Assembly (NCBI GenBank): GCA_964443405.1
Contig: CAYUDB010000001.1
Span: forward strand, 2,752 to 66,751
Source of the DNA: an uncultured bacterium
Lineage (GTDB): Bacteria; UBP14; UBA6098; B30-G16
Direction: 5' to 3'
Length of the DNA: 64,000 nt
The translations under genes and the position numbers were made by a program. The notes under the pieces were generated by a model. That model searched no databases, was not told the DNA's origin, and was given only the letters and a program-made list of their open reading frames with translations. Below, piece after piece: positions 21,912-59,461 of this stretch (the first letter of the stretch is position 1; every line of letters begins with the position of its first letter).

Positions 21912-22506
21912 TGTAATACCCCCCTACGCATTTGTTAATCAATATGTAATTACGAAATCAAGCCCCTTATGTCAACGCTATTTGACAATTATTTAATTTC
22001 CAGCAAACAAGCTCTAAAAAATATTTTATCAAAAAAAAATTTCAATACCTTTTTCGCACCTGTCGATTTTTTATTCTGAAAATTGTGAGCTGCCCAAATT
22101 TCTATTCCAACACGATGATAGCATCGCGACTTTCATTGCAGCTGTGCCAAAACCAGCCATTACCACGGCGCAAAACAGTAAAACATTCTATTTTTCAATA
22201 ACTTAGTTTTGCAGCATTTTGATCTTCACTTCAACGGAGCGTCCGGTGACAAAAACCTGCCGCCCTTTTTTTGCTCTTCGTGCCGTTTCTCCCCCGTGTG
22301 AAGAAAATGAAACTGATTACGATGGGCTTATGCAGCGGCATACGAAGCGTGCGTTTCAGTAATTTGCCATCTTATCATTCGAAACTTTCCACAAATCTCA
22401 ATAAGAGCAGACAGCGTAAAGGTGCCAGTTGGCACTGGTGGAGACAAAAACTTTGATTTTTGGGAAAAATGCTGTAATTTATTTTATGATCTTTGCAAGG
22501 TGGAAA

Positions 22507-45531: not shown

Positions 45532-47556
45532 TTATTGAGAATGCATTTCACCAATTAGATTTGTGTCGCCCAAGCCAAAAGGTATTTCAACAGTGATGAC
45601 AGCACCTTTTTCGGGCGCAAGTTTTGATGTGGCACGGATATTGCCTCGGTGCAATTTCACTATGCCATAGGCTATGGCAAGCCCCAAGCCAGTGCCTTTG
45701 CCGATGGGTTTGGTGGTGAAAAACGGTGTGAAAATTCTCGGCAGCACATCATCGGCAATGCCGGCGCCGCTGTCGGAAATTTCGATAATAGCACGAGCGC
45801 CATCTGGTGATTTTCGACAGCTGATTTTGAGTGCGCCGAAACCGCCCATAGCCTCGATGGCGTTTTGAATTATGTTTATGATTACCTGCCGCATTTGGTC
45901 AGAATCGATGTTGATATGTGGCATCTCGGCAAAATCGAACTCAACTTTGACCCCTGCGTTTTTGGAATCGCGTATAAAAGGTTCGACAACTTCGCGCAAA
46001 AAAGCCTGCAAATCGACTTCTGAAAGCACCAGCTTGTTCTGGCGAGCAAAGTTGAGCAAATCGGCAACTATGCGTCGGCAGCGATCGGTTTCGCGCACTA
46101 TAACTTCGATATCCTCACGGCGCGGATCGGTGTTTTCGAAGCTTTCGAGCATAAGGTTCGAATAGAGCAGCACCGTGCCAAGTGGATTATTTACTTCATG
46201 CGCAACACCTGCGGCGAGTTGCCCCATTGCCGCCATTTTTTCGGATTGTATGAGCTGTTTTTGCGCTTCTTTGAGTTGTTTGTGGCTTTCTTCGAGGTCA
46301 CGCACAGCCTTTTCGTGAGCCTCGACTGTGTAGGGTAAGCACATTTCCGATTCGGCAAGCCCTTGTAAAACAGCTATGGCATGTTCGCGACATGTTTTGT
46401 AACCGCATGCACCGCAATCGAGTTCATCGGCACGCACAGTTTTGCCCATGCGCTGAAGCTGAAATTGTATTTGACTTTCGGTAGGTGTGGGCAAAGTGCG
46501 CAAATCGTCACTAAAATTCCGCGACAGGTCGATGTCGGAAACTAAATCCATGTTCGCGCGCCAACGCACCTCGTCAAATTCTTCGGTGCGCTCGCGATAG
46601 TATCGAAGCACATTGTCGCGATGGGCAAAAAGCTTTTCGCGATCTTTAGCTAAAGGTCCGTTAACGCAGCCTTCGCAGAAAAGTAGATCTAAAAAGCGAG
46701 GCTCCATTTCGCCTGCGGCAAAACTGTGCAAAAGTGAGACGATTCGATCTTTGCCTTCGGCGATAAGCAGATCGTTTTTGCTTATGTCGTATTCGATGCC
46801 CGCACTTCGCAGAAGCCCACCCGAAACAGGGAAAAGCGTGCCACGTGAAGGTTGAGGTCCATCGAAAGGCAGCGGCATAGCTTTTGATGTATCGATGCCA
46901 GCTTTTCGGAACATTTCTTTTATCTCGTTGAAAGTGAGCACGATATCGACATCGCCAGCTACTTGTGGCTCGGCGGCTTCAACTTTTTTTGCCACACAAG
47001 GACCCAGAAAAACCACTTTCGATTTTGGGGCAAAAATCTCTTTTACCGCGCGCGCCATGGCTATCATAGGGCTTATAACCGGTGCCAGATTTGGAATGAT
47101 TTCGGGCAAGTATTTTATAACGTAAAACGATATTGCCGGGCAGGGAGTGGCGATTATTGGACTTTTGAGTTTATCGTAAAGACGTTTGTACTCGCGAGCA
47201 ACCATGTCGGCGCCAAAAGCTACTTCCATTACATGCTCAAAACCGAGCACTTTGAGCGCACCTACAAGGCGTTCGGGCGGCTCACAATTTGGAAAAAACG
47301 CCGGAAAGGATGGCGCTACAATGGCGGTTAGCTCATGTGAATTATCCTTGAGCATTTCCCAAACGCGATCGGTGTAGTTTTCGAAGACTTTCGCCTTTTG
47401 ACTGCACACGCGCACGCAGTTACCACAGGAGATGCATCTATCTTCCACTATGAGCGCCTGCCCGCCCACGATTTGGATAGCGTGGGCTGGGCATTCGCGA
47501 ACACAAGTGTAGCATTTACGACATTTTTCGGGTATGGTGTGGACTACTCCACGCAT
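45532..47556 (-). CDS. Sensor histidine kinase with an N-terminal [FeFe]-hydrogenase-like (HydS-like) sensory domain: 2x[4Fe-4S] ferredoxin motifs, an H-cluster-type domain, a Cys-rich linker, HisKA and HATPase_c
   Basis: RBS GGAGGA. CxxCxxCxxxCP twice at the N-terminus. Hydrogenase large-subunit-like region with L1-like ATPCPA, L2-like [10 protein letters not shown] and L3-like [11 protein letters not shown]. Then CGACGYKTC, a coiled coil, an H-box (AHEVNNPLG) and a G-box (DSGAGIA...[10 protein letters not shown]). Confidence 0.75.
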
Positions 47557-51767: not shown

Positions 51768-51785
51768 AAGCAGCTTTTGTGCCAT
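51768..51785 (-). promoter_or_regulatory. Candidate sigma-54 (-24/-12) promoter of the hydCBA-kinase operon: minus-strand TGGCAC-aaaag-CTGCT, ~55 nt upstream of the hydC ATG
   Basis: Reverse complement of 51770-51784 reads aTGGCACaaaagCTGCt, with the canonical GG-N10-GC spacing. A sigma-54 activator gene is encoded divergently 280 bp away. Confidence 0.5.
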
Positions 51786-54888: not shown

Positions 54889-55734
54889 TCATTTGTTCTT
54901 GGCACCGTTGCCGCGGATGAGCGACTCGGGAGCCGATATTCTTATCAACGCGGTGTTGGAACCCCGCGAGACGATTTTTATATAGTGCAAGCCCTTGCCT
55001 ATCTTTAACTTCACGCTGCTGCCAGATGACGGACGAAGTTCCGGAGAGTTCGGGAAACTCGAAACTTTCGACGGGGTGGTCTCGAATTCATACAACACGG
55101 GCGCGCCGTCGTCCATGCTGAGTTCTATCGAATAATGTTGAGTTCCAAACTTTTCCTTTGTGTAAATCATGCGTGTATAGAGAGTTATGTCGCCTTCACC
55201 GTAGATTGAAAACTTTACCGGGTCGGTTTCGGTGGAAATATAGTAGCCCATGTCATTTCCCGCGTTGCGCAAAACCATTCCCCCGGCATGTTCGCTTGGC
55301 ACAATGGCATACGCGGCAAACTTACGGCGATGTTCTGATTTAATATACACGGTTTTGCTCGATTGCAACTCGATTTTGTGCTCTCCTGCGCCGAGTTCGC
55401 GAGAAAACTTCTGAGCCCGCGTAACTTCCTTGCCGTTTGAGAGTTGCGACTTGTGAGACGCGCGCTGTGCCAAGTGGAATGAGTCAATCGCCGTGCCGTT
55501 TACGAGAAATCGCACTTTGGCTGTGTCGTTCGGCGCGCTGCGCATGTAAAATGTAACGACGCATGGTCCTTTTACATTGAAGCTCGCGCTTTTCGACATC
55601 TCATAATATAATGTTTTCACGCCGCCCGTTTCGAGTTGCAAGCTGGGCATTTTGTTTTGCGGCACAAGCGCTTGCGATGCCGACACGCATTTTAACAAAA
55701 GCAAGCCGCATGTGAACAAAAGTAGCCTATTCAT
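54889..55734 (-). CDS. Secreted hypothetical protein (281 aa)
   Basis: RBS GGAGGG. Signal peptide MNRLLLFTCGLLLLKCVSAS. No recognisable motifs. Confidence 0.5.
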   Translation of the reverse strand: MNRLLLFTCGLLLLKCVSASQALVPQNKMPSLQLETGGVKTLYYEMSKSASFNVKGPCVVTFYMRSAPNDTAKVRFLVNGTAIDSFHLAQRASHKSQLSNGKEVTRAQKFSRELGAGEHKIELQSSKTVYIKSEHRRKFAAYAIVPSEHAGGMVLRNAGNDMGYYISTETDPVKFSIYGEGDITLYTRMIYTKEKFGTQHYSIELSMDDGAPVLYEFETTPSKVSSFPNSPELRPSSGSSVKLKIGKGLHYIKIVSRGSNTALIRISAPESLIRGNGAKNK

Positions 55735-55749
55735 AACAATCCCTCCGTG

Positions 55750-56295
55750 TCATTTTTTCTCTACCGCGCCATTAAAAAACCATTCATTGCCATACATGAT
55801 CGACTGCAAGCCGTCTATGAGCTGTTTATGGCTGTTTGGAACGTGTATCCCGTAGATTTTGCTACGTTTAAACACGTCTTTGCGAGCCGCCGACACGTAT
55901 ATGGTAGGCAAATCGGTGATTTTTTCAATGTAATCGTCGAGTTCGAAGAATCCCGACTCGTCAAAAAGCTGTTCCAAGCCGTGCCAGCGCTTTTTCGACA
56001 CGCTTGCCACAAACCGCAAGCCGCTTCTGCTCGAAAGCAGGCTGTCTGGAATATCTTTACACAGACGTGCGAAAAACGTATCGTTGCGTGCGACAATCTC
56101 GCGTTTGAATGGATAAAGAATTAATTCCGCCGTAAAATCTTTGCGATAAACAATTTCATAAGATGCACACGCTCCAAAACAAGGTGTAGCCTCAAGTGAA
56201 AACATTTCATACGCCGGCAATTTTTTCGCCTTCGCGCCTGCAAAAACGCAACTCACAAGCGCCAAAATCACCACGACTTTTGACAAACATTTCAT
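55750..56295 (-). CDS. Secreted hypothetical protein (181 aa)
   Basis: Signal peptide MKCLSKVVVILALVSCVFAGA. No recognisable motifs. It lies 15 nt upstream of the next gene. Confidence 0.5.
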   Translation of the reverse strand: MKCLSKVVVILALVSCVFAGAKAKKLPAYEMFSLEATPCFGACASYEIVYRKDFTAELILYPFKREIVARNDTFFARLCKDIPDSLLSSRSGLRFVASVSKKRWHGLEQLFDESGFFELDDYIEKITDLPTIYVSAARKDVFKRSKIYGIHVPNSHKQLIDGLQSIMYGNEWFFNGAVEKK

Positions 56296-56404
56296 CGCTC
56301 ACCTACTTTTTACCGTCGAAATTTTTGTTATGCATGCCGCATCAAAACAGTTTTTTGCCAAATGAAACGTAGTTTTGGTTGAGTTTTTAGAGAAACATGC
56401 CGTC

Positions 56405-57082
56405 TCAGAAAGGTTGAAACACGGATAAATGACCGTGCATGATGAATTGCAAAAAAATCCCGACGGCTATGGGAACTGAAAAGTTGTCGTCGATGAAAAA
56501 CGACACGAGTTCGACAAGTGTCGCGACGGCTGCGCCTAAAAACGTGTCGAGCAGGGAAATGCCCGGGACGCATAAACCGGTTATCAAGGCGCCCACAAAA
56601 AACGCCGAGGAGCCTTCCCAAGTTTTCTTGCGGATTGTGCAATCGCTATTGCGGTGCGAGTAAATCACATGGCGACCGTAAATTTTTCCCACGAAGGCTG
56701 CGAAAATGTCCCCGACGATTATGAAGCCTGTCGAGACGGCTGCGATGTTCGGCTCAAAGAGATATAAGGATAGCGCGCCGCCCGTGAGCAAATACGTGGA
56801 GCCTGTCATACGTCGCAACTCCCATCTGCGATACATCTTGCCCCACAAGCGATAAATGAACTTGCGAAATGGTTTGTGATGGACGCGCAAAAAATCGTGC
56901 AAGGCGGAACCGAGCGCCACACAGACGATTATGCACAACGCCACGCCGCGTGGAATGAAAAGAAAGCCGAGCGGAATAGACAGCGCGACGATGTGTGTGC
57001 CTTTACGCATGATTTCGCCCTGATACTTTTCGTCTAAAATGGGGCTATTTTCGATGTTGAGATCTATATCTTTGATTTTCAT
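56405..57082 (-). CDS. CTP-dependent polyprenol/phytol/dolichol-kinase-like (CdsA/DolK/VTE5 superfamily) integral membrane protein
   Basis: Polytopic protein with RKxxH (MRKGTHIV) and GDxxAxxxG (GDIFAAFVGKIYG) signatures of the CTP-transferase-1 / dolichol kinase family. No SD sequence; start taken from the ORF track. Confidence 0.5.
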   Translation of the reverse strand: MKIKDIDLNIENSPILDEKYQGEIMRKGTHIVALSIPLGFLFIPRGVALCIIVCVALGSALHDFLRVHHKPFRKFIYRLWGKMYRRWELRRMTGSTYLLTGGALSLYLFEPNIAAVSTGFIIVGDIFAAFVGKIYGRHVIYSHRNSDCTIRKKTWEGSSAFFVGALITGLCVPGISLLDTFLGAAVATLVELVSFFIDDNFSVPIAVGIFLQFIMHGHLSVFQPF

Positions 57083-57096
57083 TTGTTTACCGTCGC

Positions 57097-57560
57097 GTTT
57101 GCACGATTACAAGTGGCTTTTGTAGAGTTACATGTTGGTTTTGTAAAGTTTTTAGTCGCTTTTGAAAAGTTTACAGTGACTTTTGCGGAGTTTCTGGTTA
57201 AGTTTGCAGAGTTTCAAATTGGTTTTAAGCAAAAACAAGTTGGTTACGAAAAAAATCGGGTTGATTTTGCAATGTTGCGCATGACGTCTGCACGACCGCC
57301 GATGGCTTCTGTAAAATTACGAGTGACACTTGAAAAATCGCGCGTTGCCTTTGTAAAATTGCTGACCATCTAAAATGAACTACGAGTGGAGCTTGCAAAA
57401 GTGCGAGTCGCTTCAGAAGAAATTACGGTTAGGTACGACGACTTGCGGAAAAGGTTTGCAGTGTTGCGGATGACATTAATTTTTCTGTGAACGGTATATA
57501 ATTTTTTGCGCGTAACACGCTATTTTTTGCGACAGCTGTTTGCAGAGATTTTTGTGCATC
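57097..57560. repeat. Array of ~20 tandem, degenerate 21-bp repeats (consensus roughly TTTTGYARAGTTTnnnGTKGRC) in a 1 kb non-coding region
   Basis: Strict 21-nt phasing seen directly. Examples: ttttgtagagttacatgttgg, ttttgtaaagtttttagtcgc, ttttgaaaagtttacagtgac, ttttgcggagtttctggttaa, gtttgcagagtttcaaattgg, ttttgcaatgttgcgcatgac. Confidence 0.7.
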
Positions 57561-57685
57561 TGGAAAAGTTTCGTATAAAAATAGTTATTTTTTGAATTGC
57601 AGTTGTTGTATTTTTCATTTAGTATAGCGTGACGCGAATGCAGTGGCGATTTGTGTTTTGCCTGTGAAAATTATTGCGTGCGGAG

Positions 57686-57961
57686 TTTGCAATTTCGCGC
57701 ACGACAGTGACTTGACAGACCATAAACTTTTACAAAGAGCGCATTACGTTTGAAAAACTGCGCATGAGATTTGTAACTTCGCGCAACGTTTTTGCAATAT
57801 CGCGAGTTGAATTTGTAATAACGCAACTCGTGCAAACCGTGTCGCGCATGAAATTTTTACACGTGCATGTCGCAATTGCAAAGCCTCGCGCGGTATTTGC
57901 AACTTCGCGCACGACAACTGCTTAACAAACTGTTAACTTTTACAAAGAGCGCGTAAAGTTT
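57686..57961. repeat. Second repeat family: two ~66-nt direct repeats (57686-57752 and 57895-57961, ~85% identical) flanking six or more 20-21-nt units of consensus TTTGCAAnnTCGCGCAnnnnn. Inverted partial copies occur at 58011-58040.
   Basis: Seen directly: tttgcaatttcgcgcacgacag..., tttgtaacttcgcgcaacgtt, tttgcaatatcgcgagttgaa, tttgcaacttcgcgcacgacaa... The shared block ends in acttttacaaagagcgc. Confidence 0.65.
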
Positions 57962-58090
57962 TTCAAAAAAAAAGTCGGGAAAAAAATTCTTCCCGCCATC
58001 GTGAAATTTTCGCGAACTGTGCGAAATTTTTTGCGAGCAATGAACTTAAAACTACGTTTGAGTTCGCATGCACCACGCGCGACGTTTAAA

Positions 58091-59461
58091 CTATTCCGCA
58101 TCGATTCCGTAATCTTTCAGTTTGTTGCGCAACGTGTTACGATGAACTCCCAAAATTCGCGCGGCTTCGGTTTGGTTGCGCGCGCAATGTTCGAGAACAG
58201 AAAGTATGTGTGTGCGTTCCATTTCCTCGAGCGTGCAAAATGTTTTGTCGTGTTCGCAAGGTTGCGCGCTGGGATTTTCTTGTGTCGCATCGGGTTGCAG
58301 AAAAAGCTCGGCGGGCAAAAGCTCGTTACGGGCGAGAATTACCGCTCGCTCGACGGCATTTTTAAGTTCCCGCACGTTTCCTGCCCACTGACGGCGAAGT
58401 ATGACGTCGCGCGCGTCGGGCGAAAAACCTTTCACGTCCTTGCCGTATTTTTGCGCGCAATTTTCGAGAAACATATCGGCGAGCGCAAGCAAATCCGCGC
58501 TGCGTTCGCGAAGTGGCGGAATGTGTATGCGTATGAGATTCAAGCGGTAAAACAAATCCTCGCGAAACGCGCCGCTTTTCACCATGCTCTCGATGTTGCG
58601 ATTGGTGGCGGATATAATACGCACGTCAGGTTGCACGTGTTCCGAGCCGCCGAGGCGATAAAACTTGCCGTCCTCGAGAAAACGCAACAGCTTTGCCTGC
58701 AAAATCGGGGGAAAATCGCCAATTTCATCGAGGAAAACGCTGCCGCCCGCGCCGAGTTCGAGCTTGCCCGCGGTGCGTTTTTTCGCGCCCGTGAAAGCCC
58801 CGCTCTCGTAACCGAAAAGCTCCGACTCGAGCAGGGTCTCGGGGATAGCTGCACAGTTGATAGCCATAAACGTGCGGTCGCGCCGCAAACTGCCCGCGTG
58901 AATCGCGCGCGCAATCACTTCCTTGCCGGTGCCGCTCTCGCCGGTTATCATGACGGGCGCGTCGGTTTCGGCAACTCGCGCCACAACGTTGAGAATTTCC
59001 TTCATGTGTGCCGATTCGGCAACTACGTTCAAAAATTGTTGCGCGTCGGTTAAAACATGTTGCAACTCACGGTTTTCCGTCATTTTCTGGCGTTTCTCAC
59101 ACAGCTGTTCGACAATGCGTTCAAGTTGTGCGATGTCAACGGGTTTCTCGAAAAAATCTGCGGCGCCCGCGCGCATGCCCTGCGCCGTTTTGCCGACTGT
59201 GGCATAAGCCGTGAGGATTATTGCGCCCAACTCGGGGTCTTTGGCACGCAACATGGCGAGCAAATCGACGCCCTCGCCGTCAGGCAAACGCAAATCGAGT
59301 ATCGCCACGTCGAAACCGTTGTGTTCGAAGAGCTTCATGGCGCTTGCGATGCTATCGGCAGTGCGCACAACATAGCCACGCTTAGCAAAAAAGCCTGCCA
59401 AAAGCTCACGTTGCGACGACTCATCATCCACTATAAGTAATTTGTAGTTCTTGCGTTCCAT
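58091..59461 (-). CDS. Second sigma-54-dependent transcriptional regulator (NtrC family)
   Basis: REC (LLIVDDE...DLRLPDGEG). AAA+ (GESGTGKE, ESGAFTGA, ISATNR). C-terminal HTH (QTEAARILGVHRNTLRNKL). Confidence 0.9.
   Translation of the reverse strand: MERKNYKLLIVDDESSQRELLAGFFAKRGYVVRTADSIASAMKLFEHNGFDVAILDLRLPDGEGVDLLAMLRAKDPELGAIILTAYATVGKTAQGMRAGAADFFEKPVDIAQLERIVEQLCEKRQKMTENRELQHVLTDAQQFLNVVAESAHMKEILNVVARVAETDAPVMITGESGTGKEVIARAIHAGSLRRDRTFMAINCAAIPETLLESELFGYESGAFTGAKKRTAGKLELGAGGSVFLDEIGDFPPILQAKLLRFLEDGKFYRLGGSEHVQPDVRIISATNRNIESMVKSGAFREDLFYRLNLIRIHIPPLRERSADLLALADMFLENCAQKYGKDVKGFSPDARDVILRRQWAGNVRELKNAVERAVILARNELLPAELFLQPDATQENPSAQPCEHDKTFCTLEEMERTHILSVLEHCARNQTEAARILGVHRNTLRNKLKDYGIDAE

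Follow-up and report, generated by a model that had tools for sequence, protein, structure and literature searches.

Why does a bacterial chromosome carry a kilobase of non-coding DNA set in a 21-nt register, and what keeps that register in place? The question is raised by a 1008-nt spacer in a 64,000-nt stretch of contig CAYUDB010000001.1 from an uncultured bacterium of the UBP14 lineage (the window). The spacer lies between the stop codon of a minus-strand gene for an NtrC-type response regulator (58091-59461) and the start codon of a minus-strand gene for a membrane-kinase-like protein (56405-57082), and is occupied by an array of about 45 degenerate 21-nt units that fills the whole space from the terminator of the regulator gene to the start codon of the membrane-kinase-like gene. 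We find that the array is non-coding, keeps a strict register, changes in length by whole units, accumulates substitutions in excess and is conserved at particular positions of its unit. The reading we favor, with a probability of about 40%, is that the array is a DNA-level, helically phased element under selection for its register and for the phasing of its T-tracts; that it would be bound by protein and play a regulatory role is inferred.

Anatomy and register of the array

When the sequence was arranged in rows of 21 from position 57097, 41 units were found in register to approximately position 57957, including a weakly repetitive stretch at 57475-57684. By autocorrelation, base identity at lags of 21, 42 and 63 nt was 0.45, 0.41 and 0.41, respectively, compared to about 0.26 for shuffled sequence (z = 13.2, 10.4 and 9.8). 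Thus, the 21-nt register over at least 20 consecutive units that had been described in a first-pass annotation, made from the sequence alone, holds over a longer span, and its period survives rigorous statistics. No other region of the 64-kb window was found to be periodic like the array.

The locus was also recovered by exact-protein look-ups from approximately 10 independent metagenome assemblies, several of these from sewage. The window allele is termed W, and the strain alleles from public metagenomes are numbered L001, L007, L128, L132, L133, L134, L137 and L138. Cores of the form TTTG[ACT]A were found to share one phase in 15 of 16 cases in W, 22 of 22 in L132 and 15 of 15 in L137. The units are otherwise far from uniform, with a mean pairwise identity of about 8.5 of 21 positions (about 40%); because of this degeneracy, Tandem Repeats Finder reported only 3.8 copies (57107-57185). 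Matches between units are unevenly distributed over the columns, with a per-column variance of 33.3 compared to 9.2 +/- 2.9 when mismatches were permuted, a value reached in 0 of 5000 permutations. The consensus of the array is GTTTGCAAAATTGCGAGTGGC, and its GC content is 40% compared to 47.6% in the surrounding DNA. Set out in rows of 21, the array is composed of three parts, none of which is assigned to a strand:

57097-57474, left sub-array of 18 in-register 21-nt units
57475-57684, central weakly periodic stretch of 10 unit lengths in which the register is preserved
57685-57957, right sub-array of 13 TTTGCAAnnTCGCGCA-type units, where strains differ in copy number

The left sub-array begins 14 nt upstream of the ATG of the membrane-protein gene and has the consensus kTTTGyAAAGTTnnnrGTGrn in W and TTTTGCAAAGTTGCGAGTGAC in alleles of the L128 type. 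A second repeat family and a pair of long direct repeats, both of which had been noted at first pass, were also detected; the pair (57677-57751 and 57887-57961) measures 75 nt, is 79% identical and is spaced by 210 nt, or exactly 10 units. The central stretch holds an island at 57476-57516 (TTAATTTTTCTGTGAACGGTATATAATTTTTTGCGCGTAAC), and a 34-nt segment of this part of the array (57482-57515) resembles 58007-58040 at 71% identity. The latter segment is the hairpin region between the stop codon of the activator gene and the array, and the distance between the two is exactly 525 nt, or 25 units. This likeness at an exact multiple of the unit points to an in-register duplication of the activator-side flank as the source of part of the array.

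Period-21 signals of lesser extent were observed elsewhere in the window. A second 21-nt tandem repeat, unrelated to the array in sequence, is present at 46251-46296 (2.2 copies, 80% matches) within a gene for a hydrogenase-like sensor kinase. Identity at lag 21 is also mildly raised (0.13-0.16 above control lags) at 55400-55850, within the coding regions 54889-55734 and 55750-56295, and this signal is far weaker than that of the array.

Strain alleles and the basis of the register

Comparison of the alleles revealed many substitutions in the array and almost no shift of phase. In its left half, seven alleles that diverge by up to about 35% were aligned over 393 columns with zero gaps. By contrast, a control spacer of 109 nt downstream of the membrane gene displayed about 7 small indels between the same alleles. 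At an assumed rate of 1 indel per 10 substitutions, the Poisson probability of finding none is 2e-6. The control spacer itself (56296-56404, between the membrane gene and a DUF6438 gene) is 109 nt in W compared to 151 nt in the L128 type (L128 2561-2711), with several small indels.

Over the whole array, the length differences consisted of -42 nt, +21 nt, one compensated -1/+1 pair and blocks of 294 nt. The 294-nt block, which corresponds to 14 units and lies in the counterpart of the right sub-array, is present in 3 copies in L132, 2 in L137 and 1 in L128, and the blocks of L132 are near-identical, unlike the units in general. All alleles are short-read metagenome contigs, in which the copy number of the 294-nt blocks may be collapsed. 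The spacer measures 986, 1008 or 1575 nt (about 1359 nt in L137, with an N gap), where 1008 is 48 x 21 and 1575 is 75 x 21. The number of units ranges from 47 to 75 by strain, and approximately 1 kb of non-coding DNA is kept in every allele sampled. This variation is not assembly noise, as identical alleles were assembled independently from different samples (L132 = L133 = L134; L137 = L138).

The array was found to diverge 3-10x faster than the four-fold degenerate sites of the flanking genes. Between W and L007, 13.9% of array positions differ (117/840), compared to 1.5% of four-fold sites (3/200; Fisher p = 1e-8) and 3/263 positions of other non-coding DNA (p = 2e-11). Between W and the L128 type, the array differs by 42% and four-fold sites by 9-12% in the two adjacent genes or 20% over five genes (p <= 1e-17), and within the L128 clade the array differs by 1.3-4.8% compared to 0-1.0% for genes. 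The change is unevenly spread. The island 57476-57516 differs by about 11% between W and L128, an ordinary neutral rate, compared to 42% for the units. Units are positionally orthologous between alleles, with 11-18 of 21 bases identical on the diagonal compared to 8.3 off it, and between such orthologous units the slowest positions are TTTG.A......C...T.G, which change at 0.24-0.34 compared to 0.5-0.66 elsewhere. The substitutions have an ordinary spectrum, with 82 transitions and 38 transversions, and are strand-symmetric (A>G 26, G>A 20, T>C 20, C>T 16). Adenine mutagenesis of a diversity-generating retroelement (DGR) target was considered and rejected based on this symmetric spectrum, together with the finding that no reverse transcriptase domain was detected among the window proteins scanned.

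The array undergoes in-register recombination, as judged by the higher-order blocks and by two further traces. L007 gained the 8-mer TGACCATC at the exact phase where another unit carries it, and the 7-mer around a variant has an in-phase copy elsewhere in 36 of 232 cases compared to 30 of 464 for control bases, a 2.4-fold enrichment. About 85% of the variants have no in-phase donor, and conversion within the present arrays therefore does not explain most of the excess; unit-to-unit gene conversion was rejected as the whole cause of the fast divergence on these grounds, the donor enrichment being only 2.4-fold.

The main alternative to selection on the register is a functionless, self-perpetuating degenerate minisatellite, in which slippage amplified a 21-nt unit, unequal recombination and conversion in register maintain the unit length and repeatedly re-create the blocks, and the conserved skeleton is a remnant of the ancestral unit. 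We consider this explanation possible, if doubtful. It is in keeping with the variation of copy number between strains by higher-order blocks of 294 and 210 nt, with the traces of in-phase conversion, with the restriction of the array to one lineage, and with the occurrence of intergenic 21-nt tandem arrays in many bacteria, where they are common. A substitution rate above that of silent sites is likewise expected from repeat-driven mutation rather than from constraint. Against it, a unit likeness of about 40% points to weak homogenization, yet small indels are absent; conservation is strongly position-specific; and most variants lack an in-phase donor. Bacteria usually show deletion bias, and more than 1 kb of useless DNA in every strain would run counter to this bias.

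Predicted DNA curvature was examined with a dinucleotide wedge model, which singled out one segment:

57051-57260, no strand assigned, the most curved 210 bp of the window as predicted by the wedge model, with T-tracts phased every 21 bp

By this model, the ratio of end-to-end distance to contour length for the segment is 0.524 compared to 0.915 +/- 0.06 window-wide. For the left half of the array in all six of the alleles tested, the ratio is 0.60-0.77 compared to 0.91-0.93 after shuffling within units. The predicted curvature of the right half is ordinary.

Taken together, the absence of small indels despite weak homogenization, the position-specific conservation, the period of two helical turns and the kept curvature suggest selection on the register and the core. 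We propose that selection may act on the register and on a few core positions (TTTG.A......C...T.G) rather than on the remaining sequence. With one T-tract/TTTGyAAA core per 21 bp, i.e., two turns of B-DNA, all cores would lie on one face of the helix and the gene-proximal part would be intrinsically curved. The array could then serve as a phased landing platform for a DNA-binding or nucleoid-associated protein, or as an architectural element, and most plausibly would set or insulate expression of the membrane-kinase-like gene. Its sequence would be quickly reshaped by in-register slippage, block duplication and partial unit-to-unit gene conversion. The proposal at first pass that these are phased sites for cooperative protein binding is thus retained in part: a DNA-level constraint on register is favored by the lack of small indels, the length changes in multiples of 21, the slow core and the kept predicted curvature, and an enhancer for the adjacent activator is not supported.

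Several observations weigh against selection on a phased element. Functional sites are usually slower than silent sites, and the array evolves 3-10x faster. Neither a promoter for the membrane-protein gene nor a sigma-70 promoter common to the alleles was located. The curvature values, obtained with Bolshoy-Trifonov parameters in the wedge model, are indicative only, and in W the curvature stands out over only the first 200 bp or so. Homogenization alone could in principle keep the unit length. The array is moreover restricted to a single species complex, and the relatives examined lack it at the syntenic site; phylogeny therefore gives no argument for a conserved function.

A bolder version of the phased-element reading, which we regard as rather unlikely, is that the array represents a novel class of chromosomal cis-element. 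Its 47-75 weak sites, locked in phase on a single helical face, would form a platform that nucleates either a protein filament or a nucleoprotein structure of curved or superhelical shape. Selection would keep only the register and a handful of core bases, and the remaining sequence would turn over more quickly than silent sites. What the element encodes would then be helical geometry and not sequence.

Flanking genes and coding, RNA and replication readings

The genes and signals that border or overlap the array are as follows:

56405-57082, minus strand, gene for a dolichol/phytol-kinase-like membrane protein of 225 amino acids (aa), frame intact in all alleles
58091-59461, minus strand, gene for an NtrC-type response regulator with Response_reg, Sigma54_activat (AAA+) and HTH_8 domains
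57958-57995, minus strand, terminator-like hairpin and T-run (CGGGAAGAATTTTTTTCCCG ACTTTTTTTT) downstream of the sigma-54 activator gene, conserved between alleles
58008-58032, plus strand, hairpin and T-run (TTTCGCGAACTGTGCGAAA TTTTTTG), a doubtful terminator
57083-57373, plus strand, spurious open reading frame (ORF) of 96 codons with a TTG start, the only ORF, in which the repeat is read as heptads (FVKFLVA, FEKFTVT and so on)

The domains found in the 58091-59461 protein agree with its first-pass description as a sigma-54 activator, and its helix-turn-helix is near-invariant across alleles. The neighbor on the other side had been called membrane kinase-like; it is a membrane protein and kinase-like in the sense of dolichol/phytol kinases, its homologues being assigned to PF01148 or named 'dolichol kinase', and is not a sensor kinase. 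The spacer is the longest non-coding stretch of the window and 10x the typical gap; it is not 10x every other gap, as had been stated at first pass, the second longest being about 520 nt (21912-22428). Since the L128 and L132 alleles do not conserve the 58008-58032 hairpin, its role as a terminator is doubtful, and the 'partial inverted copies' previously placed near 58011-58040 turn out to be this hairpin (58008-58026). A 350-codon ORF on the plus strand (58001-59053), antisense to the gene for the sigma-54 activator, is nearly certain to be a shadow ORF.

Since the period is divisible by three and seven codons equal 21 nt, the array could be a decayed gene for a heptad-repeat protein, and heptads of the form F-x-x-h-R-V-x in a plus frame and x-T-R-N-F-x-K in a minus frame do extend over long stretches. 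We regard this origin as highly improbable. In W, L007 and L132, all six frames contain 7-20 stops each, with TAA, TAG and TGA all present and at positions that differ between alleles. Substitutions are distributed evenly over the three codon positions (40/39/41 for W-L007 and 53/42/46 for W-L128), with no 3-nt periodicity, and the conserved positions match no frame (e.g., G.A is kept with a free middle base). Decay of a gene would also give small indels and a neutral rate, not a rate above neutral. The conceptual translation had no match among 5.8 billion proteins by word-indexed search. With the 96-codon ORF as query, full HMMER against 1.84 billion cluster representatives gave 13 matches, and none of the six that were read looks like a true homologue; these six are unrelated proteins of repetitive or low-complexity sequence, in most cases translations of other 21-nt repeats into heptads. 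Thus, the region is non-coding, the TTG-initiated ORF is an artifact of the repeat as had been supposed, and no conserved coding gene with matching peptide repeats was found in relatives. Public gene calls nonetheless place spurious proteins of 86-116 aa on the plus frame of the array (L001 629-889, L132 2678-3028 and other alleles), and in some alleles shorten the membrane-protein gene to 134 aa, even though its 225-aa frame is unbroken in every allele.

A function at the RNA level was also weighed, in which the array forms a long leader of the membrane-protein mRNA on the minus strand, or a separate non-coding transcript, with repeated motifs that recruit Rho or an RNA-binding protein. The array reaches up to the start codon, and no promoter can be seen close to the gene; transcription may therefore begin far upstream and cross the array to reach it. 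RNA transcribed from the minus strand of the left and central parts would be rich in C and poor in G (plus strand G 97 and C 58 in one, G 48 and C 25 in the other) and unstructured (z = +0.54), like Rho-utilization sites. A TATAAT at 57497-57502 on the plus strand of the central island is kept in all alleles; a complete promoter conserved around the island was found on neither strand. By contrast, no Rfam match was obtained at gathering score or at E <= 1, except for one meaningless miRNA match, and no tRNA or tmRNA was detected. The folding energies of both halves on both strands were similar to those of shuffled sequences (z = +0.54, 0.01, -1.67 and -1.05), and a consensus fold of seven alleles had a covariation term of -0.01. 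A structured RNA was rejected on the basis of these three results. An exact 21-nt register would in addition be needless for an RNA sponge or a rut site, and the terminator hairpin lies between the array and the upstream gene. We therefore judge an RNA-level role unlikely. An array of Bacteroidetes-type TTTG promoter elements was likewise rejected because the window genes have Shine-Dalgarno sites and TTGACA-type promoters. The window also encodes the type IX secretion markers PorV and Por_Secre_tail.

The direct repeats are spaced at two helical turns, a spacing also seen in plasmid iterons and certain partition sites, and a DNA-binding activator gene lies beside them. On these grounds the array could be read as an iteron-type origin, a partition site of the centromere-like kind or a sigma-54 enhancer that serves the adjacent activator. 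The evidence makes any of the three very unlikely. Cumulative GC skew, which had been named as a check for an origin, is flat with no skew switch, and every gene between 53.6 and 62.7 kb lies on the minus strand, with no change of orientation. No DnaA box was found in the array, and parS was not detected above chance in the window, nor at all in the array. No rep or par gene (parA/parB, parM/parR, tubZ/tubR) was found among the window proteins scanned with Pfam; the content of the window is instead chromosomal housekeeping (seryl-tRNA synthetase [SerRS], MutL, DprA, CoaBC, TldD/PmbA and type IX secretion components). Plasmid and phage collections held nothing similar to the array. The 21-nt spacing of the array is that of iterons, which are direct repeats of about 17-22 bp at two helical turns. 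Iteron copies, however, are near-identical, and the units of the array agree at a mean of 8.5 of 21 positions and are far more degenerate and numerous than known iterons. A replication or segregation element, as had been raised at first pass, is thus disfavored by the skew, by the lack of DnaA boxes, parS and rep/par genes and by the low likeness of the units.

The enhancer proposal fared no better, as no sigma-54 -24/-12 promoter (TGGCAC-N5-TTGC, GG/GC elements) was found on either strand of 57000-58100, in or beside the array. A near-consensus sigma-54 promoter (TGGCACAAAAGCTGCT), the only good site and the nearest, is located at 51769-51784 on the minus strand, upstream of a minus-strand gene run from 51713 down to 45532 that includes a response regulator and a sensor kinase with an Fe-hydrogenase-like domain (45532-47556). 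This promoter is a more plausible target of the sigma-54 activator than the repeat array.

Relatives, implications and known systems

The first-pass annotation had proposed a search for the consensus in related genomes. Relatives at 63-65% SerRS identity keep the gene order in part and have no array, and homologues of the membrane protein at 52-57% identity are found in other contexts, also with no array. Degenerate-pattern scans of genome, viral and metagenome collections returned, among the matches listed, mostly near-perfect 21-nt variable-number tandem repeats (VNTRs) and no relatives. A wider family was considered based on similar-looking units (L041, L039, L066, L265, L325 and L263) and rejected, as identity is at chance level and the neighboring genes differ; at the 12 positions that the search pattern left free, at least 120 loci show the identity expected by chance, and none exceeds 7/12. 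A literature search returned nothing relevant to the array.

Two of these loci are young, near-perfect 21-nt intergenic arrays in unrelated genomes. One (L066 1139-2800), on a Sedimentisphaerales chromosome (OY759675.1), consists of TTTTGTAAATTTGAAAAATGG x14 and lies in a 1.6-kb spacer alongside other short repeats. The other (L041 5361-5717) consists of GTTTGCAAGACCGCGCGACGC x17 in a Planctomycetaceae metagenome-assembled genome. The SerRS of the source organism has no match above 66% identity except itself, followed by matches of about 55% in Zixibacteria, TA06 and Omnitrophota.

If the register is under selection, the locus would be a bacterial kilobase-scale non-coding element in which helical geometry is conserved and base sequence is not, and strains with 47, 48 and 75 units would provide a natural allele series for testing. 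The locus evolves several times faster than silent sites, yet is not a CRISPR array, a DGR target or a contingency microsatellite. Should it prove only a minisatellite, it would still be a useful strain marker for an uncultured sewage lineage. The spurious ORFs annotated within it are a warning for gene callers.

Among known systems, sigma-54 upstream activating sequences resemble the array in that it adjoins the gene of an NtrC-type activator with an HTH_8 domain. They consist, however, of a few dyad-symmetric sites, unlike the dozens of direct repeats found here with no -24/-12 promoter, and the array lies downstream of the terminator of the activator gene. Plasmid iterons and iterated partition sites (e.g., the 22-bp iterons of R6K and the 20-bp repeats of the pSK41 centromere) are likewise direct repeats of about 20-22 bp that are two helical turns apart, a spacing which in these systems puts the bound protein on one face of the DNA. 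By contrast to these, the array is in a chromosomal housekeeping setting with no rep/par gene, DnaA box, AT-rich unwinding element or skew switch, and has 10x more units that are poorly conserved and hypervariable between strains.

Bacterial intergenic minisatellites and VNTRs, such as the loci of mycobacterial interspersed repetitive units (MIRU), are closer in layout, with head-to-tail repeats of tens of bases between co-oriented genes, a copy number that varies between strains, and change by whole units and higher-order blocks. The array shares their strain-variable copy number and not their high unit identity: its units are about 40% identical, compared to near-perfect units in these loci, and at 47-75 units it is very long. 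It also differs in having no small ORFs that bridge the flanking genes, in keeping its register without homogenization and in a substitution rate above that of silent sites. Phased A/T-tract curved DNA upstream of bacterial genes, a common target of H-NS-type nucleoid proteins, shares with the array T-tracts in helical phase, predicted curvature, a position directly upstream of a gene and a lower GC content (40% vs 47.6%). Such curved DNA spans about 100-200 bp and has no strict tandem unit, whereas the array extends for 1-1.5 kb with a period of 21 rather than about 10.5.

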